Translations under genes and position numbers: made by a program | In this document: positions 5,365-64,000 of the stretch, piece after piece | Layout: every line of letters starts with the position of its first letter | How positions within the stretch are numbered: position 1 is the stretch's first letter | NCBI GenBank assembly: GCA_040766525.1 | Contig: JAXGQI010000008.1 | Span: forward strand, 167-64,166 | DNA from: Clostridiales bacterium | GTDB taxonomy: Bacteria > Bacillota > Dehalobacteriia > UBA7702 | Direction: 5' to 3' | DNA length: 64,000 bases | The notes under the pieces: generated by a model | What the model saw: only the letters and a program-made list of their open reading frames with translations | Database searches by the model: none | What the model was told of the DNA's origin: nothing

Positions 5365-6245
5365 TCATTTGATCTGGGATATTATTTTTTCTTCCTTGGA
5401 AAGGTCTTGTGATTGCCAAACCGTAAAAAAGGATGGTGGCGATGAGGATGAAGATACTCTCAAGGGAAGATACCGTATGCCTCCCCAAATTGGAAGATAA
5501 CCCCCATCTCTAATTTGAAGGCTTCCGTCATCTCTGCCGGCGCTTGCCCGAAAACCTGGTCGAGGGAAGATTCCATCATGACCTGGCGAAAGAGGGCCCC
5601 GGCATGAGAAACCGGGAAAATTTTGACGACGGTTTGCACCCCTTCCGGCAGATTGCCAATGGGGATATAGATTCCCGTCAAAAACCCGATCAGGGTACCG
5701 ATGATCGTGCTGGCGGTACCGAAAGCATTGGCGCTTTTTAGAAAAGTGGTGAGGAGAAAAACCATGGAACTGCTGGAGATCACCGCTAATACCAAGATTC
5801 CCAAGATGCGGAGAAGAGCGGAAAATTCCAAAAGGCTGCCACCATTGCCGAGAATGTAAATCTCTGCCAAAACCAGGGTGATCAAACAAAGGATCAGGCC
5901 AACCACGACGGCATTTAACACATAGCCCGCGGCTAATGTCCCTCGTTTGATGGGAGACGCCATGAAGTCTTTTCCGGTTTTCTTGGCATTATCATCTACC
6001 ATGATGCCGAAAGCGCCCAAAGTCCCGGTCATGGAAGTGACAGCTAAAAGCCCGGCCATGATCCAACTGTCAATTAAAAAGCGCACCTGATCACCCATAG
6101 CGAGCATGCTATTGGTGATGATATCCCCAAGGAATAGGACATAAAGACCGATGATGATAAAAACGGAAAGCAAAGAAAAGAAAACAGAGATGCGATCACG
6201 GAAAAAGAGTTTAAGGTTTCTGTTTAAAAGACGCAAAACGGTCAT
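5365..6245 (-). CDS. ABC-2 type transporter permease (frameshifted near the 3' end)
   Basis: Six hydrophobic segments, RNLKLFFRD and GFLTGIYIP; coupled to the ATPase upstream. Confidence 0.85.
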
Positions 6246-7156
6246 TCTCTGATCTCCTTTCCGGTAATATTGATAAAGGTATCGTCCATATTGCCTTGGA
6301 GCACTTCAAACCCGGTGATATAGGGTTTTGCCGCCTCTAAGACCGGCAGCGCCTCCATGGTTTGATTGAGTGTGAGGGTAATAAAGCCGCCTTGCATTGT
6401 GCTGGTGATCCCCATATTGTCCAGGAGGTTTTGGAGACCTTCCTTTTCCCCGGGGATGAGCTTCAATCGGTCGCGGCTATAGTGTTGCCGCAGATCGGCC
6501 GGGGTCCCTTTGGCGGCAATTTTGCCTTCGTCGATGATGGCCACATAATCGGCTTCCGCCGCTTCTTCCATATAATGGGTGGTCAGGAAGATCGTGGTGC
6601 CGCTTTGCTTTTGCAGTTTTCGCACCGTGTCCCATACATTTTTTCTTGTTTGCGGATCCAGACCCGTGGTGGGTTCATCTAAAAATAGGATCTTGGGGGT
6701 ATGAACCAGGGCTCTGGCAATATCGGCGCGGCGGCGTTGCCCGCCGGAGAGCTTTCCGTACCGCCGTTTGCTGAAATCCTCTCCTCCTACGATGCGAATC
6801 GCATTTTCCGCCGCTTCTTTGAGGGCTTTCCCCGAGAGTTTATAGAATGCGCCGCGGGTATAAAGATTTTCCTCTACTGTCAAGAGCGGGTCTAAGACGC
6901 TGTCTTGAAAGACAACGCCGATACTGTTGCGGATTTTGGCGTCGTCTCGCCCGAGCTTGAATCCATTGATAGTAATCTCCCCGGCGTCGGGTTTGAGTAA
7001 GGTGCAGAGAATATCAATTGTGGTGGATTTTCCTGCGCCATTAGGGCCGAGAAAAGCAAAAAGCGTTCCCGGTTCCAAATAAAAATCGATGCCTTTTACC
7101 GCTTTTACGGAACCGTAACTCTTCCTTAATCCTTCGACATTGATGATCGTATCCAA
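6242..7156 (-). CDS. ABC transporter ATP-binding protein
   Basis: GPNGAGKST, LSGGQ, LFLDEPT and TTHY; TTG start after GGAGG. Confidence 0.93.
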   Translation of the reverse strand: MDTIINVEGLRKSYGSVKAVKGIDFYLEPGTLFAFLGPNGAGKSTTIDILCTLLKPDAGEITINGFKLGRDDAKIRNSIGVVFQDSVLDPLLTVEENLYTRGAFYKLSGKALKEAAENAIRIVGGEDFSKRRYGKLSGGQRRRADIARALVHTPKILFLDEPTTGLDPQTRKNVWDTVRKLQKQSGTTIFLTTHYMEEAAEADYVAIIDEGKIAAKGTPADLRQHYSRDRLKLIPGEKEGLQNLLDNMGITSTMQGGFITLTLNQTMEALPVLEAAKPYITGFEVLQGNMDDTFINITGKEIRE

Positions 7157-7355
7157 GCGTTTACCTCCTTTGTACAGTTTGATAGGGAAAACCCTATTCA
7201 TCTGTCTTGATTTATGATAAAATAAAATATAAAATTATACATATTTTTGTTTTATAAGAAATTCGCTTTTTCATTGGGTTTTCCTTTATTACCGTTCCAC
7301 TGTCCATTCGTAAGGTTGCATGGTTTTAGCTGAAATGAAAAAGGAGATGAGGAGC

Positions 7356-22092: not shown

Positions 22093-22834
22093 TCAAGCAG
22101 CCGAGAGGGCTTGTTGTCTGTGAATAGCAGGCGGCAAGCCCTTTAAATATACTTTATTGCGGCGGTTGTTATAATAATCAAGGTATTCGATCAACTCCTG
22201 TTTGAAGTGCTCCATTGATTCGAATTTCTGCAAATACATCAGTTCGCTCTTGAGTAGCTCAAAGAAGTTTTCAATCACGGCATTATCCAGGCGATTCCCT
22301 TTGCGGCTCATGCTCTGACGAATGCCCTTGGCCTTTAAAATTTCCCGATAGTGTCTATGCTGGTACTGCCAGCCTTGGTCAGAGTGGAGAATCAAGTTTG
22401 TTCCATCCGGTATTTGCTCGAATGTTGTTTTCAACATAGATGTTACCATAAAAAGCATTGGCCTTTCCGATAGGGTATAGCTTGCGATGTCCTGGCTGCA
22501 AAGATTAAGAATCGGTGATAAATACAGTTTTTGGCCAAACAAGCTGAACTCCGTAACATCTGTAATCCACTTCAGGTTTGGCTTCTCAGCCTTGAAGTCT
22601 CTTTTTAGAAGGTCGGGGGCAGTTTTACCCACTTCGCCCTTGTAGGATTTGTACTTTTTCATTCGTACCCGGCAGACAAGGCCAAGCGCTTTCATCAATC
22701 GCTGAACCGCCTTGTGATTAAGAGGGAATTCCCGGTTGCGGAGCTCCGATGTAATACGACGATGCCCGTAGCGTCCTTTGTTTTCGTGATATATGGCTGC
22801 AATTTCGTCTCTTTCTGTGCTGTACTTATCTGGC
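22093..22834 (-). pseudogene. IS3-family transposase OrfB, 5'-truncated
   Basis: The frame reads DKYS..IAAIYHENKGRYGHRRIT..NHKAVQRLMK, then the DDE motifs WITDVTEF, HSDQGWQY and IENFF. Confidence 0.9.
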
Positions 22835-22913
22835 TATCTTTGCCGTTTTCGGCCATGATTTTATCAATAACTTCATCGGCAAGTTCCAACGACTTTAAAA
22901 ATTCTCTTTTCAT
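22835..22913 (-). pseudogene. Phage capsid scaffolding protein (GP20-like), N-terminal stub
   Basis: MKREFLKSLELADEVIDKIMAENGKD with a GGAGG RBS, cut off by IS orfB sequence. Confidence 0.75.
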
Positions 22914-23048
22914 TTTCTATCCTCCAATTACGCTTTTTTCGGGGTTGCATCCCGTATTGTCCGTAGTTTTACGACATCGGGCGGTCAATTTTGGGCATAT
23001 AAAAAGCACTCTGCGTTTGCAAAGTGCTTTGAAAGCTGTTATTTGGTT

Positions 23049-23330
23049 TTAGCCTTGATGGAGCAACCCTTCCAGTTCATCCAGTTCGCGGCTATCCTCG
23101 CAATAAATAAATGGACCGTCCTCTATATCGTAAACTACGGTAAACGGGGTTTCTCCATGTTTCCCCTCATAGTGATCGGCATATGGCAACACAATAGGTT
23201 TGCCTATGCTAATTTCAGGGACATCGTATAAAACATTTAGCGCACGTGTCAGAAGTGTTCTCTCATCTACACGATCCCTGTTTTTAAAATAAAAACGAAC
23301 GGTATCGCCTTCCATTCTAAATGTATCCAC
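23049..23330 (-). CDS. Small acidic protein, candidate immunity protein for the MuF toxin
   Basis: 93 aa with a strong RBS (AAGGAGG) just after the muF stop; lies between muF and scaffold, as in MuF toxin loci. Confidence 0.6.
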   Translation of the reverse strand: MDTFRMEGDTVRFYFKNRDRVDERTLLTRALNVLYDVPEISIGKPIVLPYADHYEGKHGETPFTVVYDIEDGPFIYCEDSRELDELEGLLHQG

Positions 23331-23348
23331 TCATACATACCTCCTTAC

Positions 23349-24269
23349 TCAAAAGCCAAGGTCTCTGTCGATTTCCTTATTTGACGTCGACGCTGACCTA
23401 ATTATGTCCACGTACAAGTCATCTCCGTCTAAATGATATTTTCGCCTTTTATGCTCCAAAATTTCCTCAAAAGAGGGATTGGGATGCTTTTTATCAAGAT
23501 CCTTCACCTTGTCCCTATCCTTCATCATGTTTCTTGCCTGTGTACGGTACTTGTTTCTTAGGCTAAAAGCCTTTTCAGCTTGCTCCTTCAATGCCTCGGC
23601 TTTATCCAGCAACTGGGGTATTTGTGCAATATGCCCCCTATACCAGCTTCTCACCTCAACTTTTCCAAATAAGCTATCAAGTCTCTCAGAATAATCCAAG
23701 CTATTCAATACGGACTGTTTCTGCCGGACAAACTCGGTCCATACTTCACTCCTATTATACTTCAAATCCTGGAAATCTGCAAACGATTTAGGGAAATCTT
23801 TGCCTTTAAAAATGGCCTTATATTTAGCAAATTGCTCTTTATCAGCCGCCCAATTCTTGGCAGTTTTCTGATTAAAAGCCATCTTGCTTTTCTCATCAGG
23901 AGAAAGACCGGCTTTCCATTCGCTATAGCTTATATCCGCCGGTATGGTGTAGCTTGATCCTTCTGCTGCCCTGGCGGCTCTCTCACCGCCAAGATCAGCG
24001 AAGTATGGGATTGTCGTGCATCGGCAGAAGGGATGCAGCGGGGGATAATTAACACCCGGCTTTTCATCTTTTACGGGATAATGCTTGCCATCCAAACCAC
24101 CGCAATGCTCACATGTGCGGCTGTCAAGGGTGCCGAGAAATTCATACTCTTCAACCTCTGCTTCTTCGTACATGTCTTTAGTCGCTTGATTCAAAATGAA
24201 ATTTGTTTCGGTGCGAATGAGCCGTTGAGCTCGATACAATTCACCGCCTTTCTTCCCCTCTACGACCAT
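23349..24269 (-). CDS. Phage Mu gpF/SPP1 gp7-like (MuF) protein, N-truncated, with a toxin-like C-terminal extension
   Basis: RLIRTETN, LDSRTCEHC and PPLHPFCRC MuF motifs; a linker, then a ~100-aa helical C-terminal domain (RSWY..AFSLRNKYRTQAR..PNPSFEE..DIIRSAS). Confidence 0.82.
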   Translation of the reverse strand: MVVEGKKGGELYRAQRLIRTETNFILNQATKDMYEEAEVEEYEFLGTLDSRTCEHCGGLDGKHYPVKDEKPGVNYPPLHPFCRCTTIPYFADLGGERAARAAEGSSYTIPADISYSEWKAGLSPDEKSKMAFNQKTAKNWAADKEQFAKYKAIFKGKDFPKSFADFQDLKYNRSEVWTEFVRQKQSVLNSLDYSERLDSLFGKVEVRSWYRGHIAQIPQLLDKAEALKEQAEKAFSLRNKYRTQARNMMKDRDKVKDLDKKHPNPSFEEILEHKRRKYHLDGDDLYVDIIRSASTSNKEIDRDLGF

Positions 24270-31427: not shown

Positions 31428-32958
31428 ATGCAAAAGAGTATTTTGCGGGCGACTACGGTCGTCCTGGTGATGAATTTATTGGCGAAGATCCTTGGCTTCG
31501 GCCGGGAAATGGTAATTGCCAGGGTTTTTGGCGCCAATATGTATACGGACGCCTATTTAGTTGCTTATACTTTACCATATTTTTTGCAGACGATCCTTGG
31601 TTTCGCTTTGGTCACGGTTACCGTGCCACTGTTGACGAAATATCTGTTGGATGATAATAAAACAGAAGCCTTCCAAGTCAGCAATTATTTTATCAATATC
31701 GTAATTATTGTAATGACGGGATTTGCGCTGTTGGGCGTTGTTTTGGCGCCCTATTTGGTGAAGATCACCGCGCCGCTTTTCAATGCGGAAACGGCGGCTT
31801 TGGCTACGGAATTGACGCGGATCATGTTCCCCGCAGTCATTTTTATGAGCTTGGGCATGGTGATCACGGGTATTTTAAATGCCCATCACCGGTTTTTAGC
31901 GGCGGCGTTTGCTCCCGGCTTTTCCAGTTTGATCATCATTCTGGGGGTCCTTGTCCTCGGCTCTTCCCAAGGGATTTACGGCCTTGCTGTGGCAACCCTT
32001 GTTAGCTTTGTCGGTTTGATGGTCGTGCAATTACCGAGCCTGTTCCATTTGGGGTATCGTTATGAAGCGAAGATCTCTTTGAGCCATCCCGATGTGAAAA
32101 TGGCGATGAGTACGATCTTGCCGATCGTTTTGGGGACTGCAGTCAATCAGATCTATTTTGCCTTAAACCGCATTTTTGCTTCCGGTTTGGTGGAGGGGAG
32201 TATCTCTGCCTTGAATTATGCCAATAAACTGGGTGAATTTTTCCCGGTGGCGTTCTCTGTATGGCGATTGCCGCGGCAGTTTATCCGTCTTTTACTGAAT
32301 TTGCCCTTAAAGGAGAGCACAGGAAAACTCATGGGCAGTTTGGAAAAGGGGATGGGAATGGTCATGCTCTTAGGATACCGGCGGCAGTCGGCTTGATCGT
32401 ATTGAGGATTCCCATTGTGCAACTGCTTTTTGAGGGGGCGCTTTTACCCTATGAGAATACTTTGCAGACGGCTTCCGCTTTACTCTATTTTTTCCAGTTG
32501 TTCCCTCTTCGCAGCGGTAATTGTTTTAACCAGGGTATTTTATGCTTTTTGGTGATGTAAAGATGCCGGTTTACGCCGGGCTCGTAGGGATTGGATTAAT
32601 GTTGCTTCCAGTTTGCTTTTGCGGGGGCCTTTAGCCCACAGCGGTTTAGCTCAGCTAATTTTTAGCGGCTACCGCCATGTTAATTTTCTATGGTATTGAA
32701 AAAATATCTGCCGGATTTGGCATATCGACCGTTTATTGATTCCTTTTACGCATTACAGCTGCGTTTCTGGTGATGGGGGCGGCGATCCATTTCTCCTTCC
32801 TGCTTTGGGCGGTTTTCGGCAATGACGGCGGTAAGGGGACGATGCTCGTTGTTTTGGGGTTGCGGTGGAATTCTCCTATGTTGCATCGGCATTTTTGTTG
32901 CGGATCAAAGAGGCGAATTATGTGAAAAAGAGATTATTTAAAGCTTCATAAAAAATAA
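31428..32958 (+). CDS. murJ: MurJ/MviN lipid II or polysaccharide flippase (frameshifted)
   Basis: LAKILGFGREMVIA..FGA..DAY, ISALNYANKL and many TMs; end coordinate approximate. Confidence 0.85.
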
Positions 32959-48850: not shown

Positions 48851-51262
48851 ATGAATGTATCATATCAATGGTTAAAATCCCTGGTTCCTTTCGATCTGGG
48901 GCCGGAAGAATTGGCAGATAAGCTGACTTTCGCCGGGCTCAGTGTGGAACAGGTTGTATATTTGAATCAAGGCGTTAAGAATGTTGTCGTCGGGAAAGTG
49001 CTCCAAGTGGAAAAGCATCCCGATAAAAAGAAATTATCCATTTGCAAAGTGGACAGCGGCAAGGAAGAATTGACCGTCGTCTGCGGTGCTCCCAATGTGC
49101 GGCCCGGCATCAAGGTTCCTTTGGCTTTGGTCGGTGCGGTGCTCCCCGGCGGAATCGAGATCGGCATTGCCGATAAGGGGGGTATTACTTCTTACGGCAT
49201 GCTCTGTTCGGAAACGGAATTATCTTTGCCTCAGGGGCTGGCTTTAGCGGATTCCGAAGGTGGGATCTTCATCCTGCCGGAAGATTTTACCGTTGGCGAA
49301 GATATCGTTACGGCTTTAAAGCTGGACGATGCTATTTTAGAATTTGAATTGACGCCCAACCGGGCCGACTGCTTATCCGTGGTCAATATCGCCCGTGAGG
49401 TGGCGGCGATCACCGGCGCGCCCTTGACTTTGCCGGAGATCATACTCCCTCCGGCGGTGAAGGATATTCGCTCAATGATGTCTGTCGAAGTAGAGGACGA
49501 TTTCCTCTGCCCCCGTTTCACCGGGAAGATCATCGAAGGCGTGAAGATCGGGCCTTCTCCTTATTGGATGCGGCAGCGTTTGGCATGTGCGGGAATCCGC
49601 TCCATCAATAATGTGGTGGATATTTCCAATTATGTCCTTATGGAAATGAGCCAACCTTCCCATACCTTTGATTATCACCGTTTGGCCGGGCATAAGATCA
49701 TCGTCCGCAGAGCGGAAGAAGGAGAAAAACTCGTTACCCTAGATGAAATCGAGCGGACGCTGAATCATGATATGCTCTTGATCTGTGACGGCGAGCGGGC
49801 GGTTTCCGTTGCCGGGGTCATGGGCGGTATGGATACGGAAATCACCGGAAACCGAAACGATTTTCATTGAATGCGCCTATTTTTATCCCAAGTCGATCCG
49901 GTTGACTTCCCGTGCTTTGGGCCTTTCTTCCGAGTCTTCCGCCCGTTTTGAAAAAGGGATCGATAAAGAAAATGTTGCGCGCTTCGGACCGCATCGCCCA
50001 GTTGATGTGCGATTTGGCCGGAGAGTACTCTGGTTGAAGGGACTTTGGATACCTTCAGCGGCACATTTGAAAAAGGCAAGTGGAAGTTACTTTAGAACGG
50101 ATCAACGGCACCTTAGGCATCGAATTGACCTGGCAAGAGGTGGAGGCCGTCATGTCCGCTCTCGCTTTTGCATATGATAGAGAAGGAGACAAGATCATCA
50201 TTTCCGTGCCCTCTTACCGTCCGGATATCACAAGAGACGTCGATATTATCGAAGAGATCGCAAGGCTCCACGGCTATGATAAGATTCCCGCTACCCTGCC
50301 GAAGGGGAAGGTGACCGAGGGTCGCCGTACCGAAAAACAAAAATCGAGGACAAAATCAAAGAGCGGATGGTTGCTTTGGGATTTTCCGAGATCATTACCT
50401 ATAGTTTTACCAATAAAAAATATTTTGAAGATCTGCTCTTGACCGAAGATGATTTTCGCCGCCGTACGATCCAGGTGAAAAATCCCTTCAGTGATGAGCA
50501 AGGGATCATGCGCACGACTTTATTGCCCAGCTTACTGACGGTGGCGGCCAGAAATATGAACCGCCGCAATCTCGATATGGCCATCTTTGAAATGGCCCAT
50601 GTCTTTTGCCCGGTGAAGAGAAATTGCCTGATGAGGAGCCGCATTTGGCCGCCCTCGTTTCCGGCGCGCATTTAACCGGCTGGAGCAAAGAGAAGGAAGC
50701 CTTCGATTTCTTCTATCTCAAAGGGATTTTAGAGGCGATCTTGGCGCTTTTGCAGATCAAGGATTGGTCTTTATCCAACGAAGATTTGCCGCCTTTCCTT
50801 CATCCCGGAAGGGCTGCAAAGCTCTATATCGGCGGTGAATATCTCGGTTATTTGGGTGAGATCCATCCCACGGTGGCGGAGAATTTCGATCTGCCGGAAA
50901 AAGCCAATGTGATGGAGATCGATTTGAGCGTATTATTGGCTGAAGGGGCAGGACATATCGTTTATCAATCTGTCTCCAAATATCCCGGTGTTGAGATCGA
51001 TTTGGCATTTCTTGCCAATGAGGAAGATCCTGCCGGTGAGATCGCCGCAGCTATCAAGAGAAATGGCGGCGAGATTTTGCAGCAAGTGGAATTGTTCGAT
51101 ATTTACCAAGGGAACCAGATCGAAGCCGGGCAAAAGAGTTTGGCTTATAAACTGAAGTTCCAGGCGCCGGAAAGAACGTTAACCGCCGAAGAGATCAATG
51201 GAAAGGTAGAGATGATCCGTCAGGGTCTAAAAGAGGAATATGGAATCCTTTTGCGTTCATAA
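48851..51262 (+). CDS. pheT: Phenylalanine--tRNA ligase beta subunit (frameshifted)
   Basis: [30 protein letters not shown] and an FDX-ACB C-terminus, across frames. Confidence 0.95.
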
Positions 51263-54979: not shown

Positions 54980-57328
54980 ATGAATGACCGAACTTTAGAA
55001 AAATTAGAATATCCCAAAATCATGGCGATGCTGGCGGATCAATGTACCTCGACATTGGGTCGGCAGCTCGTAGGGAAGCTTAGGCCCAGCCGGGAAATAG
55101 AAAAAGTGGAACATTGGCAGGAAGCGACGACGGAAGCGAAAACGATCATCCGCTTAAACCCTTTGTTTCATCTCGGCGGTATTTTCAATATTCGAGAAGA
55201 TATTGAAATGGCGGAAAAAAGCGGCGTTCTGGAAGGGAGCAAGCTCTTAGAGATCATGACGACCTGCCAGGCGGCCAGACGCATCAAACTTTCCCTCACC
55301 CAGATGAAGGAGACCTATCCTATCGTGCAAGAGATCGGGAATGAGATCTGTTTCATCAATTCTCTGGAGAGCGCCATCGAAGGCGCTGTGGGTGACGACG
55401 GGCAGTTGGTGGATAATGCCAGCGGGGAATTGGCCGATCTGCGCCGTAAGATCCGGATTACTTCCGATCGGATCAAAGATAAGATGGAAGGGATCATCAA
55501 GAATCCCAATCAGAATAAGTATCTCCAAGACCCGATCATTACGATTCGCAATGATCGCTATGTCGTCCCGGTGAAACAGGAATACCGGAATCAAGTGCCG
55601 GGTTTGATCCATGACCAGAGCGCCAGCGGTGCGACCTTGTTTATCGAGCCGATGGCAGTTTTGGAGATGAACAATGATTTGAAACGCTTAAAAGCGGCGG
55701 AAGAGGAGGAAATCCGCCGTATCCTCCGGCATCTTTCCAACTTGGTGGCGACAAATAGCCGGGAATTAAAGATCAATCTCGATGCTTTGGCCCAGCTGGA
55801 TTTTATCTTTGCCAAAGGGCGCTTGAGTACCCTTTGGGACGGGTATGCCCCGCTTGAACAAGGAGGGCCGCCTTCCATTTGAAAAAAGCCCGCCATCCTT
55901 TTGGGGGCAAAGGCCGTCCCGATTGATTTGCTGATGGAGGAAAATTTATCGGCAGTCGTCATTACCGGACCCAATACCGGGGCAAAACAGTCAGTTTGAA
56001 GATCGCGGGGCTTTTGTCTTGATCGCCCAGTCCGGCCTGCATTTGCCCGTGGCGGATGGGAGCGAGCTCCCGGTGTTCGCGGCGTGTTGCCGATATCGGG
56101 GATGAGCAGAGCATCGAGCAGTCTTTGAGTACGTTTTCTTCATATGGTCAATATCGTGGAGATTTTAGCCAAAGTAGGGAAAAATAATCTCGTGCTCTTG
56201 GATGAGCTGGGAGCCGGTACCGATCCGGTGGAGGGCGCGGCTTTAGCCATGGCGATCATCGATACCCTGTTGCAGAAGGAAGCGAAAATGATCGTTACCA
56301 CCCATTGTGAGTTAAAGGCCTATGCCTTCAATCATCCCAAACTGGCCAATGCCAGCGTGGAATTTGATATTGATACCCTTCGGCCCACCTATCGTTTGCT
56401 GATGGGAATCCCCGGTCGCAGCAATGCCTTTGACATTGCCTTGAGCTTGGGTGTAGGTGAAAATGTGGTGGCAAAAGCCGACCAGTATATGTCGAAAGAG
56501 GCCAAAGAGGTGCAAAACTTCCTCGCTAATTTGGAGACGAACCGGGCGGCGGCGGAACAGGCCAAAGATGAAGCGGAATCTTTGAAGATCCGCATGGAAA
56601 ATTTGGAACGGGAAGTAAGCCAAAGAGAAAAAGCCTTGGCTTTGCGGGAAGCGCAAATTATGGATAAAGCCAGGGAGCGGGCGGAAAACTTGGTTCGGGA
56701 GAAAAAGCGGGAGGCCGATGCTCTTTTAGCGGAATTGAAAAACCTCTGGCCAAAGAGGACGCTAGAAAACAAGAAGAGACCATGCGGGCAGCCCGGGAAA
56801 AACCAAGCGCATCGGAGATATGGCGCCGGAATGGGAAGAAGCGGATTTCGGCGGCGAAGAAGTCAGGGTTTTAGCGCCGGGGATGAAGTGTATCTTCCGC
56901 GTTTGAAAAAGAACGGAATCGTCTTAGAAGTTTTGAATGAACAGGAAGTCCAAGTCCAAGCTGGTATCATGAAAATCAAAATGAAAGTGAAAGAACTTCG
57001 CAAGCCCCAAGTCTCGAAAAGCAAGCCAATAAAAGCCGCCACGGTCATCTGGCGGCCAGCAAAACAAAGAGGCCAAGAGCGAATTGGATCTCCGTGGACT
57101 TACCGGAGAAGAGGCGCGGATGGAACTGAAAAATTTCTGGACGACGCATTTTTAGCGAATTTGCCCAGCGTGCGCATCATTCATGGCCTGGGAACCGGGG
57201 TTTTGAAAAAAATGGTTTACGATACTTTGAAAACCCATGCCCATGTGGAAAGCCAAAGATTGGGTGGGTATTATGAGGGCGGCGCAGGTGTTTCCATAGC
57301 GCAGATCATAAGGGAAAACAGCGAATAG
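54980..57328 (+). CDS. mutS2: MutS2 endonuclease with Smr domain (frameshifted)
   Basis: IHDQSASGATLFIEP, ITGPNTGG, LDELGAGTDP and IIHGLGTG. Confidence 0.93.
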
Positions 57329-57688
57329 AACCAATAAACTGTTGTTTGGCAGAGCTCCCTTTTCATTATCGTGATATATTAAGTATTTTTATATATTTAT
57401 AATTTATATATCAGGTGTTGTGTCTTAATATAAATTTTGTTACTATGATTAAGTAAAATAATATATGGGAATTGAACCAATTGTATATAGAGGTATTGGG
57501 AGACATATTTCCTGGGGCGGTTTTGTTATCGTTTATATTACCTTTGCACTGAAATGTAATCTACACAGCTTATATGATTACGCATAGGTAGGCTGGTTAC
57601 ATGCCTTTGAATAATCATATTTTATATAATAGAATTTGATGCAATTTACACACTTTTAGCTTTTTAATTTATGAAAGAAGGGAATATC

Positions 57689-60142
57689 ATGCGAGCGAAA
57701 AAATTGACCCAGGTTTTTTTATTATGTCTTTTGTTGGTTTTGCTCCCTACGGCAGTATTGGCTGCTGAGGCATCGGATTTTTCCGATATGCCGGCAGTGG
57801 ATCACTGGTCTTATGAAGCGTTAAACTCGGCGGTTGAAAACAGTTTGCTTCATGGGTCGAACGGGAAGTTGGATCCTCGTGGTGTTTTGACACGTGCCCA
57901 GATGGCGGCTATCATCAACCGGGCTTTCGGTGCAACGGAAGAAGCGGATATCAGTACATATACCGATGTTCCCTTATCGGCATGGTATTATGAGGATATT
58001 GCAAAAGCGGTACGAATGGGTACTTTTAGGGGCGATGGCAGCGGGATTATGCGGCCAAATGATTCCATTACCCGGCAGGAGGCTTTTGTTGTGCTGGCGC
58101 GGGCCTTTAAACTTTCCGGTGGTGATGTGAATGTATTGGATGGATTTTCGGACAAGGACCAGATTTCTGCTTGGGCAACGGATGCTTCGGCTTCTCTTGC
58201 TGCGGCAGGCTATATTCAAGGGTCGAATAATAAGCTCAACCCAAAGAATCCATTACCCGTGAGGAATTTGCCCAGGTTATGTATAATATCATTAAAACAT
58301 ATATTTCCGAACCGGGCAGCTATACGGAGGTCGCTTCCGGTAATATTATCATCAATACGGCAGGCGTTACCTTGTGCGATGTCACGGTTAACGGTGATTT
58401 GATCATTGGCGACGGTGTTGGCGACAGTGAAGTTATTCTTGATAATGTCATTGTGACCGGCAGGCTGATCGTGCGCGGTGGCGGCGAAAACTCTATACGC
58501 ATTACCGGCGGCAGTGAGATAGATAGTATTATTATCAGCAAGGCTGCTTCCGGCGCCGTTCGTGTTTATGTTACCGCCGATTGCAGTGTTGATATGGTTT
58601 ATGTCAATGACGGGGCGGACGATATTATCCTGGAAGGCTTTTTTAATTCTGTTACTGTTCAATCTGCCACCCCTGTCGTGATGAGCGACGCGACCGTGAA
58701 TCTGTTATCGATTGCATCTGCGGGTGCTACGGTAGCCTTGGAAGGAAATACGGTTGTTACTACGGCGGAGATTACAGAAGCTGCGGTTGGCGCTACTGTT
58801 ACCATGGATGCAGGGGCCGTCATTTCAAATTTGGAAAATAATGCGGATGATGCTAATATCGCGTGTAATGTTACGAGCTTTGCAGAATTGCAGAGTGCGA
58901 ACGATGATGTTAATGTCACCGCCATCAATATCGTTGGGAGTTTTTCGATTACCGAGGATATTACCCTTTCCAAAACGATCTGCGTGGCACAGGGGTGTTA
59001 CGCTTACAGTGGCAAACGGCACAGAATTATTGATGATAGAGACTTCTCAATGTATCAATAATGGTACGATTGATGTAAACGGTCTGCTGCTTTTGGCCAT
59101 TACAGATCTCTGCAATAACGGCACTATTACGGTAAAAGAAAACGTTTTTTTCAATGTTAATATGAGTACACTGGACAATAACGGCTATTTTACCGTTAAC
59201 TTGAATGGAAGTCTAAATATCAACTTTGGCGGTCGTTTTGTTAATAAACACTCTCTGGTCAATTATGGCACGATCAATCTTGGTATTGAAGGCGGCCGAC
59301 TTGAAACGGTGCTGACCGCTGTTACCACAAACCAGGGACGGATCATTATATACGGTTTTCTTGAAGGTGCGGTCATCAATGAAGGCAGTGGTTATATTGA
59401 GAATCATGTAGCGATGCCGATCAATGAAGGCCAGTTTCTGAATGCGCTGGCCGACAATAATATCGCCCGTATATACATTGATGGCGGTACGGAAATTACC
59501 CTCAATACCGATGCAACTTTCACAAAAAAAGTGGAAATCGACGGGGGGATACTTAATATTGCCGCTAATGTTAACATTAACGGCTCAGATGGTTATCTTG
59601 CTGTTGATGGAGACGGAGAAGACATTTACGGCCAGGTCAATGTTGCTCCCGGTAAAACGGTTGCCACCGATGGAGCCGGCCGTATCAGCATCAGCGGAGA
59701 ATTGTACGTGCAGGGGTCTTTTACCAATAACGGTGTACTTATTGTAGATGAATGCGGTGATTTACTGGCGGAAGAAGCTGATACTTGCACCAACACCGGT
59801 ACCTTAATCGTAAATGGTTTTCTTACCTTAGGCGCTACGGATCTGAACAATTCCGGCGATATTTCAGTTAATCCAGATGGTGGCATGGGTGTTTATATGA
59901 GTACGCTGACCAATAGTGGTGATTTTACCGTTTTTGAAAACGGGATGCTTGAAGTTGACCGCGGCGGTTGGTTTGTTAATCAGAATACGCTGACCAATGA
60001 TGGCACCGTAACGGTTACCAACGATGGCGCCAATTTGGAAAACGATAATGGCGCGACGATTACCAACAACGGTATCTTCTATATTTACGGGTATTTTACT
60101 GATAATGGCACATGGGTGGGAACTGCTCCGATAAGGAACTGA
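57689..60142 (+). CDS. S-layer homology protein with an Asn/Gly-rich beta-helix-like C-terminus (frameshifted)
   Basis: Signal peptide, three SLH repeats, GDLIIGDGVG..VRGGGENSI, and repeated N.GT..V motifs. Confidence 0.82.
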
Positions 60143-60621: not shown

Positions 60622-61686
60622 TTATTTTACTTCCACGGTCCAGCCGTAAGGATCGGCAATTTTGCCCCATTGGATGCCGGTCAGTTGATCATACAAGGTA
60701 GAGGTCAATTCTCCCATCTTGCCGCCGCCGATCTCGATGATCTTGCCGCTCCAGTTTAATTCGGAAACCGGGGAAACAACGGCAGCGGTGCCGGAACCGA
60801 AAACCTCTTCCAATTCGCCCTGCTGATGGCGATCAAAGACTTCTTCAATGGAGAGGAGCCGTTCGCTGACCTTGAGCCCCATATTCTTGGCCATATGGAT
60901 GATGGAATCCCGGGTGATCCCCGCAAGGATGGAGCCGTTCAAAGCCGGGGTGACCAATTCATCTTTGAATTTGAAAAAGATGTTCATAGAGCCGACTTCT
61001 TCGATATATTTTTTATGGATGCCGTCGAGCCAGAGCACTTGGGCATAGCCTTTATCCTTCGCAACTTCTCCCGCCAAAAGGCTGGCCGCGTAATTCCCTG
61101 CTGTTTTGGTGAAGCCCATGCCGCCTTTAACAGCCCGCACATATTCATCTTCCACATAGATCTTGACCGGTTTCAACCCTTCGGCGTAATAAGCGCCGAC
61201 GGGGGAAAGGATGATATTGTAATAGTAAGTGGAGGAAGCTTTGACGCCGACATAGGGATCGGTGGCAAAGATATAGGGACGGATGTAAAGGGATGTACCG
61301 TCGGCTTTGGGAATCCAGTCTTCTTCCAACTTAATTAAGGTTTTCAACACTTCAACGGAGAAATCCACATCAATCTTGGGGATGCAGAGTCGTTCCGCAG
61401 AGATATTTAAACGGTTGAAATTGGCTTCCGGGCGGAAAAGCAAGGTGCGTCCGTCCGGCGTTTTATAGGCTTTTAGCCCTTCAAAAATGGATTGTCCATA
61501 GTGAAGTACCATCGAGGAGGGATCCAATTGAAAAGGACCATAGGGAATAATGCGCGGGTCGTACCAACCTTTGCCTTCGTCATAATCCATCAAAAACATA
61601 TGGTCGGTAAAAATTTTCCCAAAGCTTAAATTATTCCAATCCGGTTTGGCTTTGGGGTTTTTTGTTTTCTCAATGGTCAAATTCAT
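60622..61686 (-). CDS. ilvE: Branched-chain amino acid aminotransferase
   Basis: LHYGQSIFEGLKAY, YIRP, KTAGNY, EEVGSMN, ILAGITR and SGTAA. Confidence 0.95.
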   Translation of the reverse strand: MNLTIEKTKNPKAKPDWNNLSFGKIFTDHMFLMDYDEGKGWYDPRIIPYGPFQLDPSSMVLHYGQSIFEGLKAYKTPDGRTLLFRPEANFNRLNISAERLCIPKIDVDFSVEVLKTLIKLEEDWIPKADGTSLYIRPYIFATDPYVGVKASSTYYYNIILSPVGAYYAEGLKPVKIYVEDEYVRAVKGGMGFTKTAGNYAASLLAGEVAKDKGYAQVLWLDGIHKKYIEEVGSMNIFFKFKDELVTPALNGSILAGITRDSIIHMAKNMGLKVSERLLSIEEVFDRHQQGELEEVFGSGTAAVVSPVSELNWSGKIIEIGGGKMGELTSTLYDQLTGIQWGKIADPYGWTVEVK

Positions 61687-61959
61687 TCTTTTCTCCTCCT
61701 TAATATCCGGCGTGGTTCCGGTAACTCTCCATTAGAATATATTAAAACTTTTTAAAAAAAAGTGCAAGCCTCTCCTTTTGGCAGGATGAGGCTTTTTTTA
61801 TTGTGTTTTTGCTTACTTGAGAGTTGCTAAATCTTAGTTTTTTGGCAAAGGCTTAATGCGCTTGCCTGGTATTTTAAAGAAGAGTTTTGGAGATAAAATA
61901 AATCTCCAGGTCAACATAAGTGACGATGAGAAGAGGAGTTTGTTTTTTGGTGAAAAAAT

Positions 61960-63214
61960 TTGAAAAAAAGAAAAGATTTCTATCCTAGTTTTACTGTTTT
62001 TGCAGATATTTATTCTCTTCCATCTCAGTTTGGCCACAGCCTTTGATGGCGAGTATTTATATTATGCGGGGCAAAAGTTTGAATTAAAAAATAATCTATC
62101 GAAGGCTTTCGGCAATCTGCTGCAATATGAGATCGAAGATGGCGAGAACGAAGCCAAGACGGGCAGTTTAACGGATTTGTCTTTGGAAGAGCCGGGGTCT
62201 TATCTTTTGGGGCTTAAACTCTTTGGCGTTTTGCCGGTAAAAAGCGTTTCCGTCTCAGTTGCGCCGGCATTGGAGCTTATTCCCGGCGGTCATTCCGTTG
62301 GCATCATCATGAAAACGGAAGGTGTGATCATTGTGGGCTTTTCTTCCATCCCGGGAGAGGATGGGAAAATGCTCTATCCTTCCAAAGACGCCGATTTGCA
62401 ACTGGGAGACAGTATTTTGAAGATCAACGGCATCTCCGTCTCCAGTGATGAACAGGCGGCTGAATTGATCGACCGTTTTGGAGCGGAAGGATTTGTTGAG
62501 ATCGAGGTTCGCCAGGGAGATCAAATTCTAACGAAAAAAGTGGAGACGATTGCTTGCCCGGAAACCGGGACCTATCGCATCGGTCTTTATATTCGAGATG
62601 ATACCGGCGGCGTCGTAACCTTGACTTTTTACGATAAAAATAGCGGCCGGTTCGGCGCCTTGGGGCACAGGATCACCGCTGCCGATCCGGGAACGGAAGG
62701 GGAAAAGAATCTCTTGGGCCGTTTGATGCCGGCAAATATCACCGGGATCATTCCTGGGGAAAAGGGACGAACAGGCGAGAAAATCGGCTATTATAATCCC
62801 GGCGTGATCGACGGTGAGATCGATACCGTGGGAGAATTCGGCATATTCGGCACCCTGGCAGAAGATTTGGAGAATCCGTTTTATCCTGTGATCCTTCCGG
62901 CCCGTCCCGACCAGATCAAGGAGGGTCCGGCGGAGATCATAACGGTAATTGAAGGGGATCGCTTGGAACGGTTTTCAGTTGAGATCTTATCCGTTGACAG
63001 AAATGCCGACAAAAAAAGTAAAGGGCTATTAATCGAGGTAACGGACGAAGAGCTTTTGGAAAAAACGGGAGGGATTATTCAAGGAATGAGCGGCAGCCCG
63101 ATTATACAGGACGGGCTTTTGGTCGGCGCTGTCACCCATGTCTTGGTCGATCATCCGAATAAAGGATATGGTTGTTTAATTGACTGTATGCTGTCGGAAG
63201 CCGGGTTAATTTGA
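61960..63214 (+). CDS. spoIVB: Stage IV sporulation protein B (PDZ + S55 peptidase)
   Basis: PGGHSVG, IGLYIRD, GALGH and GGIIQGMSGSPIIQ; upstream of spo0A; indel near the start. Confidence 0.92.
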
Positions 63215-63296
63215 TGTTTCTTGACGGAAATACGTATTATTGTTATTAACCTGTAACAATAAAAATAAGAAATCTGTAATTTTTTTGAAAATTCAA

Positions 63297-63323
63297 GAAG
63301 GAGTTTTTATCCGTAAGAAGAAT
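63297..63323 (+). promoter_or_regulatory. Sigma-H-like promoter of spo0A
   Basis: GAAGGAGTT-11 nt-GAAGAAT. Confidence 0.55.
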
Positions 63324-63361
63324 AATGCTTATAAGAAATAAGTTTAGTTGGGGGAATAAAC

Positions 63362-64000
63362 ATGTTAGAAAACATCAAGATCGTCAGCGCGGATGACAAC
63401 AAGAATTTCTGCGAAAGCCTGCGGCAGTATTTGGAAACTCATGAGGATTTTCATATTGCGGGTACCACCAACAATGGAATGGAAGCATTGGAAATGGTGG
63501 AAAATGAAGAACCGGATATCTTGATCCTCGAACTCATTATGCCTTGTTTGGATGGCTTAGGTGTTTTGTCCCGGCTCAATTATTTGCCTAAACGTCCAAA
63601 AGTCATCATTAGCACTGCAATGGGGCAGGAGAATATGACGCAGGAAGCGGTACGGCTGGGCATCGATTATTTTTTGTTGAAGCCCTATGATTTTCAAGGC
63701 TTGTCCATGCGGATTCGTCAATTGGCGGGGATGCAGGGAACGACAGAAGCGGTGATGATCAACGCCAAGAACTATGATGTGGAAGTGACCAATGTGATTC
63801 ATCAAATGGGTGTTCCCGCCCACATCAAAGGGTATCAGTATTTGAGGGACGCAATTATTTTTGTTATCGATGATATCAACCTCTTGGGCGCCGTAACAAA
63901 GGAATTGTATCCGATGATCGCCCAAAAATACAAGACCACGGCCAGCCGTGTGGAAAGAGCCATTCGCCATGCCATTGAACTTGCTTGGGATCGAGGCAAT
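63362..64000 (+). CDS. spo0A: Sporulation master regulator Spo0A, 3'-partial (not in the ORF track)
   Basis: Manual translation: [64 protein letters not shown]. Confidence 0.96.

Follow-up and report, generated by a model that had tools for sequence, protein, structure and literature searches.

In textbooks, the decision to form an endospore is made by phosphorylation of the response regulator Spo0A, and the presence of a spo0A gene is widely used to label gut and rumen genomes as those of "spore-formers". In Bacillus subtilis, a laboratory deletion within the receiver domain, Spo0A-sad67, is constitutively active and independent of phosphorylation, such that its output is controlled by the expression level; we know of no such form in nature. 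The accessible sections of a preprint describe all studied Spo0A proteins as regulated by phosphorylation (bioRxiv 10.1101/2022.02.07.479450), and those of a further study frame the evolution of Spo0A as a matter of phosphorelay versus direct phosphorylation (PMC6136694). Full-text literature searches yielded no description of natural Spo0A proteins in which the acceptor site holds Glu or another non-Asp residue, and the supplements of PMC4395418, PMC12632262 and the Galperin preprint may list some. Here, we describe a spo0A gene that encodes Glu instead of the phosphorylatable Asp. It lies at the end of a stretch of 64,000 nucleotides from a Clostridiales bacterium (assembly GCA_040766525.1, contig JAXGQI010000008.1), the whole of which is termed the window.

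The gene occupies positions 63362-64000 of the forward strand as an open reading frame (ORF) of 213 codons, which runs from an ATG to the end of the window, is still open there and continues beyond. Its product scores 290.6 bits on TIGR02875, the NCBIfam equivalog model for Spo0A (cut-off 200), with the last ~40 residues lying beyond the window. The two-domain Spo0A architecture is confirmed by Pfam PF00072 Response_reg at residues 7-118 (83.6 bits) and by the start of the DNA-binding domain Spo0A_C at residues 142-213 (63785-64000; PF08769, 105.4 bits, model positions 1-72 of 104); both domains are complete in the database relative P0001 (252 amino acids), which is 99% identical to the window protein across all 213 residues. 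In phmmer searches against PDB, the receiver matches the Spo0A chain 9phz_E (E 5e-32), and the C-terminal part matches 1fc3 and 1lq1 (E about 1e-31).

The Asp that is phosphorylated in B. subtilis (D56) is absent from this protein, and Glu57 (GAA, 63530-63532) stands in its place. The residue is assigned to the phospho-acceptor column because phmmer pairs it with the Asp of pdvlvlDiimp in 9phz_E, and direct reading and a MAFFT alignment agree. The remainder of the pocket is retained: the metal-binding acidic pair Asp11-Asp12 (GAT GAC, 63392-63397; D in 121/121 and 120/121 alignment rows), the conserved switch residue Thr85 (63614-63616) within Ser84-Thr85 (63611-63616), the pocket lysine of Lys107-Pro108 (63680-63685; K in 121/121 rows) and an aromatic residue three positions before the lysine. 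Ser84 replaces a Leu found in 82/82 outgroup Spo0As, and D11, D12, T85 and K107 are invariant within the clade to which the window protein belongs. An earlier note on this DNA had aligned the GAA of residue 57 with D56 and had described the DD pocket, Thr and KP as intact, and both readings hold in the phmmer and MAFFT alignments. The exchange is readily accounted for by a single third-position change from GAY to GAR. With a Response_reg fold and Glu at the acceptor column, the protein falls within the definition of an aspartate-less receiver, and it departs from a canonical phospho-activated regulator, which combines an Asp acceptor with a cognate kinase, in that the acceptor is Glu and no kinase occurs among the 75 window ORFs scanned. 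Aspartate-less receivers are well known as a class; judged by its sequence, the window protein is a Spo0A in every tested feature but the acceptor, and hence a minimal pseudo-receiver.

Related proteins share the residue. Among the best 120 of 7999 relatives scored in a search of 5.8 billion proteins and aligned with MAFFT, the acceptor column holds Glu in seven and Asp in 113, including all 82 outgroup sequences. The Glu-type relatives are 69-99% identical to the window protein (P0001, 99%; P0002, 81%; P0004, 77%; P0021, 76%; P0008, 75%; P0027, 73%; P0031, about 70%), and all seven show the pocket signature DD-E-T-K. P0001 may be the same record as the window, and the other six are clearly independent. 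Glu is encoded by GAA in the window and the species-genome loci L068, L090 and L070, and by GAG in L091. Because independent relatives and species genomes carry Glu as GAA or GAG, a base error at Glu57 is rejected, and we regard Glu at the acceptor site with high confidence as a real, selected natural state. The earlier note had allowed for a single-base error and had proposed that orthologues with Glu be sought in relatives; their discovery in seven of the 120 best relatives and in species genomes removes that reservation in general terms.

To gauge how widespread Glu-type Spo0A proteins are, 185,579 species genomes were scanned with the degenerate pattern P-D-x-h-h-h-E-h-h-h-P-x-L-D-G, in which h is any NTN codon. 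As the pattern is estimated at about 43 bits, less than one chance match was expected, and 96 loci matched. According to a local hidden Markov model built from the window's database relatives, 56 of these belong to the Spo0A or Spo0A-like class; both domains are covered in 45, and the remainder are 644-nucleotide loci or are cut by contig ends. When the first 41 of the 96 loci were compared with NCBIfam, 28 reached at least 200 bits on TIGR02875, L034 scored 150, and 12 fell into other response-regulator families. The motif is restrictive, and the number of 56 is a lower bound on Glu-type species genomes. All 56 stem from records titled uncultured or metagenome-assembled genome, mostly of rumen or gut Oscillospiraceae or Ruminococcaceae.

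An unbiased sample comprises the best 150 of 1668 hits (E<=1e-30) among 50%-identity cluster representatives from 1.84 billion proteins, paralogues possibly included. The acceptor column is filled in 143 of the 150 and contains 128 Asp, seven Glu, three Asn, two Ser, two Gly and one Tyr. The acceptor Asp is therefore replaced in 15 of 143 representatives, roughly a tenth of the sample, and the description of this residue as "essentially invariant" in the earlier note was overstated. Further pocket positions vary as well: 41 of the 128 Asp-keeping representatives carry Asn, Ala, Ser, Pro or other residues instead of the acidic second residue of the Asp-Asp pair, and in seven of the representatives P0121-P0270 the pocket Lys is replaced by Arg, His or Met. 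By this measure, uncultured Clostridia vary much more than the studied species in the receiver pocket of Spo0A. Seven representatives (P0122, P0123, P0124, P0128, P0231, P0144 and P0218) have no receiver at all and consist of two, three or four tandem Spo0A_C domains; P0122 and P0123 contain four copies each (398 and 393 bits on PF08769). Such tethered domains would provide Spo0A-box binding without phosphorylation-driven dimerisation.

The Glu-type loci fall into groups that differ in how much of the pocket is left. The second acidic residue is lost in 49 of the 56, and both Asp residues are kept in seven, including the window relatives L068, L090 and L091 as well as L070; the commonest signatures are DP-E-S-K (25 loci) and DS-E-S-K (eight), and others are rarer. 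The largest group is an Oscillospiraceae/Ruminococcaceae clade that includes Ca. Limivicinus and comprises L010, L021, L076 and 24 other loci, i.e., 27 species genomes. Its motif reads ADPNR or ADSNT, followed by LLLELVLPKLDGLE, and 25 of its members use GAG as the acceptor codon, while two use GAA. Like the window protein, the members exceed the TIGR02875 cut-off for Spo0A and have Glu in the acceptor column; unlike the window protein, they have Pro or Ser as second acidic residue and Ser for Thr, and their origin in the tree is separate from that of the window's clade. No spoIVB was found within 2 kb of these loci, nor a sigma-H-like motif by a strict pattern. The Oscillospiraceae group is probably an old, chemically dead and more degenerate pseudo-receiver, and the window's clade, as far as its conserved residues tell, is the minimal variant, in which the acceptor alone is changed.

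Glu at the acceptor site has arisen repeatedly across Clostridia. On a FastTree phylogeny of 320 Spo0A rows, calculated with the acceptor column removed, the Glu label must have changed 21 times or more and falls into 26 maximal clusters that are entirely Glu, the largest of which is the Oscillospiraceae cluster of 27 species genomes; the species-genome loci were picked by their GAR codon, and Asp-type members nested within Glu clusters would escape this count. In view of these at least 21 D/E changes, the window is a member of a recurrent natural class and no one-off. The protein sample of the window's clade is unbiased. An IQ-TREE analysis of 47 rows recovers a clade of 40 rows (support 100/100) on a long stem of 0.61 changes per column. 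At its base are P0002 (Glu) and the pair formed by the window and P0001 (Glu), followed by P0003 (Asp) grouped with the five Glu sequences P0004, P0031, L068, P0008 and P0027, and then by a 31-row Asp group, within which the Glu-type P0021 is nested. The best clade tree implies four D/E changes, whether the ancestor had Asp or Glu. The AU test does not reject a single clade of the eight Glu rows that remain without P0021 (p-AU 0.27); it does reject one of all nine (p-AU 1.9e-6, for a group named after inspection of the tree), and it follows that the acceptor changed independently at least twice inside the window's clade. An ancestral Glu with later reversions to Asp and three to four gains of Glu may both account for this pattern.

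The stem of the clade also bears a set of receiver changes that are common to Asp-type and Glu-type members. At nine columns, the 40 clade members are fixed for a residue other than that of the 82 outgroup Spo0As, and five of these columns lie on the alpha4-beta5-alpha5 side: L84S, R95E, E98R, A101I and F109Y (region 63611-63688). L84S adjoins the switch Thr, F109Y is located two residues past the pocket Lys, and R95E/E98R is a reciprocal charge swap. The fixed changes look like a compensated remodelling of the switch and dimer face on the long stem of the clade, and a remodelled activation surface may make Glu workable and thus explain why the D/E toggle is concentrated here.

The Glu-type genes are constrained. 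Synonymous sites are saturated for all ten Glu-type gene pairs compared, at nonsynonymous divergences (dN) of 0.05-0.5, and they are still saturated between L068 and L090, which share 91% protein identity at a dN of 0.05. With synonymous divergence (dS) saturated in ten of ten pairs, dN/dS is not calculable, and the contrast is used qualitatively. Each Glu cluster contains both Glu codons, GAA and GAG. Within the window's clade, the ratio of divergence in the receiver to that in the DNA-binding domain amounts to 4.0 for the 28 Glu-Glu pairs; the 465 Asp-Asp pairs give 5.5 overall, and the 51 of them that are >20% diverged give 7.0. Glu-type and Asp-type members do not differ in how well the pocket and helix-1 columns are conserved. 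Since the divergence ratio is no higher than in the Asp-type and the pocket columns are kept, the Glu-type receiver is neither decaying nor relaxed. By these patterns, the Glu-type genes are under purifying selection.

The sporulation context is retained. Directly upstream of spo0A, on the same strand, the window contains an intact spoIVB gene (62000-63214), which encodes a sporulation-specific signalling peptidase (TIGR02860 370 bits, cut-off 305.25, model positions 58-401 of 402; Pfam Peptidase_S55 221 bits). The order spoIVB-spo0A is the canonical arrangement of the B. subtilis locus, and to our knowledge spoIVB has no role outside sporulation. The same order is found in L068, where SpoIVB scores 325.7 bits (cut-off 305); of the 46 Spo0A loci that exceed 2 kb, seven have SpoIVB-like sequence upstream, and a 27-residue fragment is also present in L058. 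The 75 window ORFs scanned include no other sporulation gene, histidine kinase, Spo0F or Spo0B, and the 64 kb hold no second ORF with a Spo0A_C domain. The genomes nearest to the window lineage are labelled Peptococcaceae or Clostridiales at NCBI. Domain content and locus identify the gene as a true Spo0A orthologue of an uncultured clostridial lineage; the TIGR02875 and TIGR02860 scores bear out its earlier designation as a Spo0A at the spoIVB-spo0A locus.

The intergenic region carries candidate control elements. A ribosome-binding site, GGGGGA (63350-63355), precedes the ATG by 6 nucleotides, and a sigma-H-like promoter on the forward strand (63297-63325), made up of GAAGGAGTT, an 11-nucleotide spacer and GAAGAATAA, ends 36 nucleotides before the start codon. 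The sigma-H pattern and the 0A box TGNCGAA used here follow the consensus sequences. The sigma-H-like pattern matches twice on both strands of the 64 kb, compared to a mean of 0.3 in 200 shuffles. The same motif lies upstream of the Glu-type spo0A in L068 and L091, and in L090 its -10 element is found at the cut edge of the locus. The strict pattern was matched by one of the 44 Spo0A loci with sufficient upstream DNA (L068), the motifs of L091 and L090, whose loci are short, being spotted by hand; as no Spo0A locus outside the clade matched, the motif is a feature of the window's clade only. A weak, imperfect 0A-box-like heptamer, TGACGGA (63222-63228, forward strand), is one base off TGNCGAA, and perfect TGTCGAA/TTCGACA boxes occur upstream of spo0A in L068, L091 and L070. 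The promoter and the boxes of the relatives would fit a Glu-type Spo0A that still binds its own promoter. A scan of 61600-64000 for sigma-70 promoters and terminators gave counts at shuffle level.

How might a Spo0A without the acceptor Asp work? We assign a probability of about one half to a phosphorylation-independent mechanism that is gated by expression. The longer carboxylate of Glu could partly imitate the aspartyl-phosphate, perhaps through contacts with the conserved Thr and Lys, and the receiver would be biased to the active, dimer-forming state without a kinase. The amount of active Spo0A would then be set mainly by spo0A transcription, through the sigma-H-type promoter and Spo0A-box feedback, possibly with additional control by protein partners, and Spo0A activity would have escaped control by orphan kinases or a His-Asp phosphorelay. 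The phosphomimetic role of Glu, the activity of the protein and sporulation by the organism are inferred from comparative evidence. We lean toward this reading because of the purifying selection, the intact spoIVB, the conserved sigma-H-like promoter and the 0A boxes in relatives. Work on aspartate-less receivers is compatible with it: in the accessible parts of PMC4395418, Glu is given as the commonest replacement of the acceptor Asp (26%), as it is in those of PMC12632262, and both state that Glu can partially activate many regulators, perhaps via the conserved Thr and Lys. The earlier note had offered two options, a phosphorylation-independent or a non-activatable master regulator; the pair stands, with the evidence leaning to the first.

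Several points weigh against the phosphorylation-independent mechanism. Asp-to-Glu alone is reported to be insufficient for constitutive activity of CheY, PhoB and Spo0A (PMC4395418, in the sections available, citing Green et al. 1991), and the available text on C. difficile describes the Spo0A D56A mutant as nearly asporogenous, with a >1000-fold loss of sporulation (bioRxiv 10.1101/2022.02.07.479450). The window's clade keeps the full Asp-Asp pair, which a pure mimic does not require; the pocket could still be used chemically, or the change could be young. The intergenic region upstream of the window's spo0A contains no perfect 0A box, and window-wide such boxes (TGNCGAA) occur at chance (46 observed, 44 expected). 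No Glu-type carrier is a known spore-former, as all 56 are uncultured, and a second, Asp-type spo0A may exist outside the visible 64 kb.

Some of these points would equally suit a locked-off or hypomorphic Spo0A in a lineage where sporulation is lost or waning and where the protein is kept for low-threshold or repressor-type roles. The two mutant results and the uncultured state of all carriers favour this explanation, as do the loss of the second acidic residue in most Oscillospiraceae Glu-type genes and the observation, made in the available part of a preprint, that asporogenous Firmicutes often retain spo0A (bioRxiv 10.1101/2022.02.25.481979). However, an intact spoIVB lies beside the Glu-type spo0A in two diverged genomes (the window and L068), the receiver is unrelaxed with a low dN against saturated synonymous sites, the sigma-H-like promoter and the 0A boxes are kept in relatives, and Glu is preserved despite GAA/GAG turnover. 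We therefore consider a locked-off Spo0A unlikely, albeit the strongest competitor.

Less probable still is a switch that remains covalent, in which Glu57 carries an acyl-phosphate or a methyl group, or else the modification sits on a residue close by, and kinases or other enzymes continue to gate sporulation. The conservation of Asp-Asp, Thr, Lys and the helix-1 face in all eight full-length Glu-type clade members, unrelaxed relative to their Asp-type sisters, would be expected of such a switch, and according to the accessible text of PMC4395418, Glu is phosphorylatable in principle and methylation is a plausible Glu modification; yet the same text knows of no example in bacterial signalling, and the 75 window ORFs scanned include no candidate for a modifying enzyme. 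Moreover, the Oscillospiraceae group has Pro, Ser, Ala or Gly in the place of the second metal-binding Asp, which argues for a Glu-type Spo0A that can work without phosphochemistry. A special form of this idea holds that the sporulation kinases phosphorylate Glu57 itself to a gamma-glutamyl phosphate and that D/E toggling tunes the lifetime of the phosphoryl group; the undiminished selection on the pocket and the partner-binding helix would then be due to this phosphorylation. We deem this form very improbable; if true, it would represent the first His-to-Glu phosphotransfer in a two-component pathway.

Also improbable is the notion that the genome has two spo0A paralogues, an Asp-type copy elsewhere that does the switching and the Glu-type copy that modulates it. 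Paralogues do occur, with two in 10 of 118 Spo0A-positive genomes and three in one, according to the part of the preprint at hand (bioRxiv 10.1101/2022.02.25.481979), Glu and Asp subclades are neighbours in the clade tree, and only 64 kb of the genome are visible. Yet the Glu-type gene occupies the canonical position behind spoIVB with a sigma-H-like promoter of its own, P0021, a Glu protein nested in an Asp subclade, resembles an orthologue with a substitution rather than an old paralogue, and the window lacks a second Spo0A_C ORF. Weakest of all, and in practice negligible, is the idea of an ordinary Asp codon in which a sequencing or assembly mistake altered one base: the assembly is prone to errors (three ORFs for pheT, two for mutS2, a truncated murJ) and Ser9 of the window protein is unlike every other clade member, but the visible errors are frame-breaking indels and no substitutions, much as the earlier note had remarked, and Glu is shared by six clearly independent relatives at 69-81% identity, by P0001 at 99% and, as GAA or GAG, by L068, L090 and L091.

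Ser9 itself (AGC, 63386-63388) is situated in the first beta-strand just ahead of Asp-Asp and is Ile in the other 39 clade members, including P0001; an Ile codon, ATC, is one base from AGC, and the residue represents a substitution private to the window or else a base error. The three pheT ORFs (48851-51262) cover model positions 1-330, 409-501 and 586-798 of 798, mutS2 (54980-57328) is spread over two ORFs, and murJ is cut at 271 of 506. Together, the regions with broken genes are 48851-51262, 54980-57328, 31428-32396 and 57671-60142, and they include a surface protein with surface-layer homology (SLH) domains that is split across overlapping frames. Broken genes of this kind point to the indel errors typical of an unpolished long-read assembly and not to pseudogenes.

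The second sigma-H-like motif of the window (7259-7287, reverse strand; AAAGGAAAA, 11 nucleotides, AGCGAATTT) is located just upstream of an ABC-transporter operon, which consists of an ATP-binding protein (6242-7201) and a permease (5460-6245) and could be a transition-state gene. At 22093-24269 (reverse strand), a fragment of an IS3-family transposase (the last ~190 model residues) adjoins a minor capsid domain similar to gp7 of phage SPP1, and this region is a small mobile-element or prophage remnant.

If the phosphorylation-independent reading is correct, Spo0A proteins without the acceptor Asp would constitute a third way to start sporulation, gated by expression or by partners. The class takes in at least 56 species genomes, as counted with a restrictive motif, and Asp is missing from 15 of the 143 diverse cluster representatives. 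The acceptor column should be looked at before a genome is called a spore-former from the presence of spo0A. The window's clade amounts to a natural experiment, where Asp-type and Glu-type orthologues exist side by side; because their pockets are otherwise identical, the swap of the single residue is directly testable in either direction.

The closest relatives of the window protein are the canonical Spo0As of B. subtilis and C. difficile (9phz, 1qmp, 5wq0, 1fc3, 1lq1), with which it shares the domains, the locus behind spoIVB, the acidic pair, the Thr and the Lys. The canonical proteins have Asp at the acceptor site, whereas the window Spo0A has Glu along with the L84S, R95E, E98R, A101I and F109Y changes of its clade. 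Spo0A-sad67 is a deletion in the receiver, in contrast to the point change at the acceptor site described here. Further parallels are found outside the family: ChxR of Chlamydia, plant pseudo-response regulators (PRRs) such as TOC1 and the fungal Rim15p resemble the window Spo0A in carrying Glu at the "D" position of a receiver fold, and ChxR binds DNA constitutively. These proteins belong to other output families, and typical pseudo-receivers are also devoid of other pocket residues, whereas the window protein keeps the rest. Furthermore, unlike in ChxR, TOC1 or Rim15p, Asp-type and Glu-type proteins alternate within one orthologous clade. Finally, the same substitution, with the same proposed mimicry of aspartyl-phosphate, has been engineered in NtrC (D54E) and other regulators, as noted in the available part of PMC4395418 (refs 31-33); yet those are laboratory mutants, while the Glu of the window's clade is evolutionarily fixed and, by the divergence patterns outlined above, under selection.

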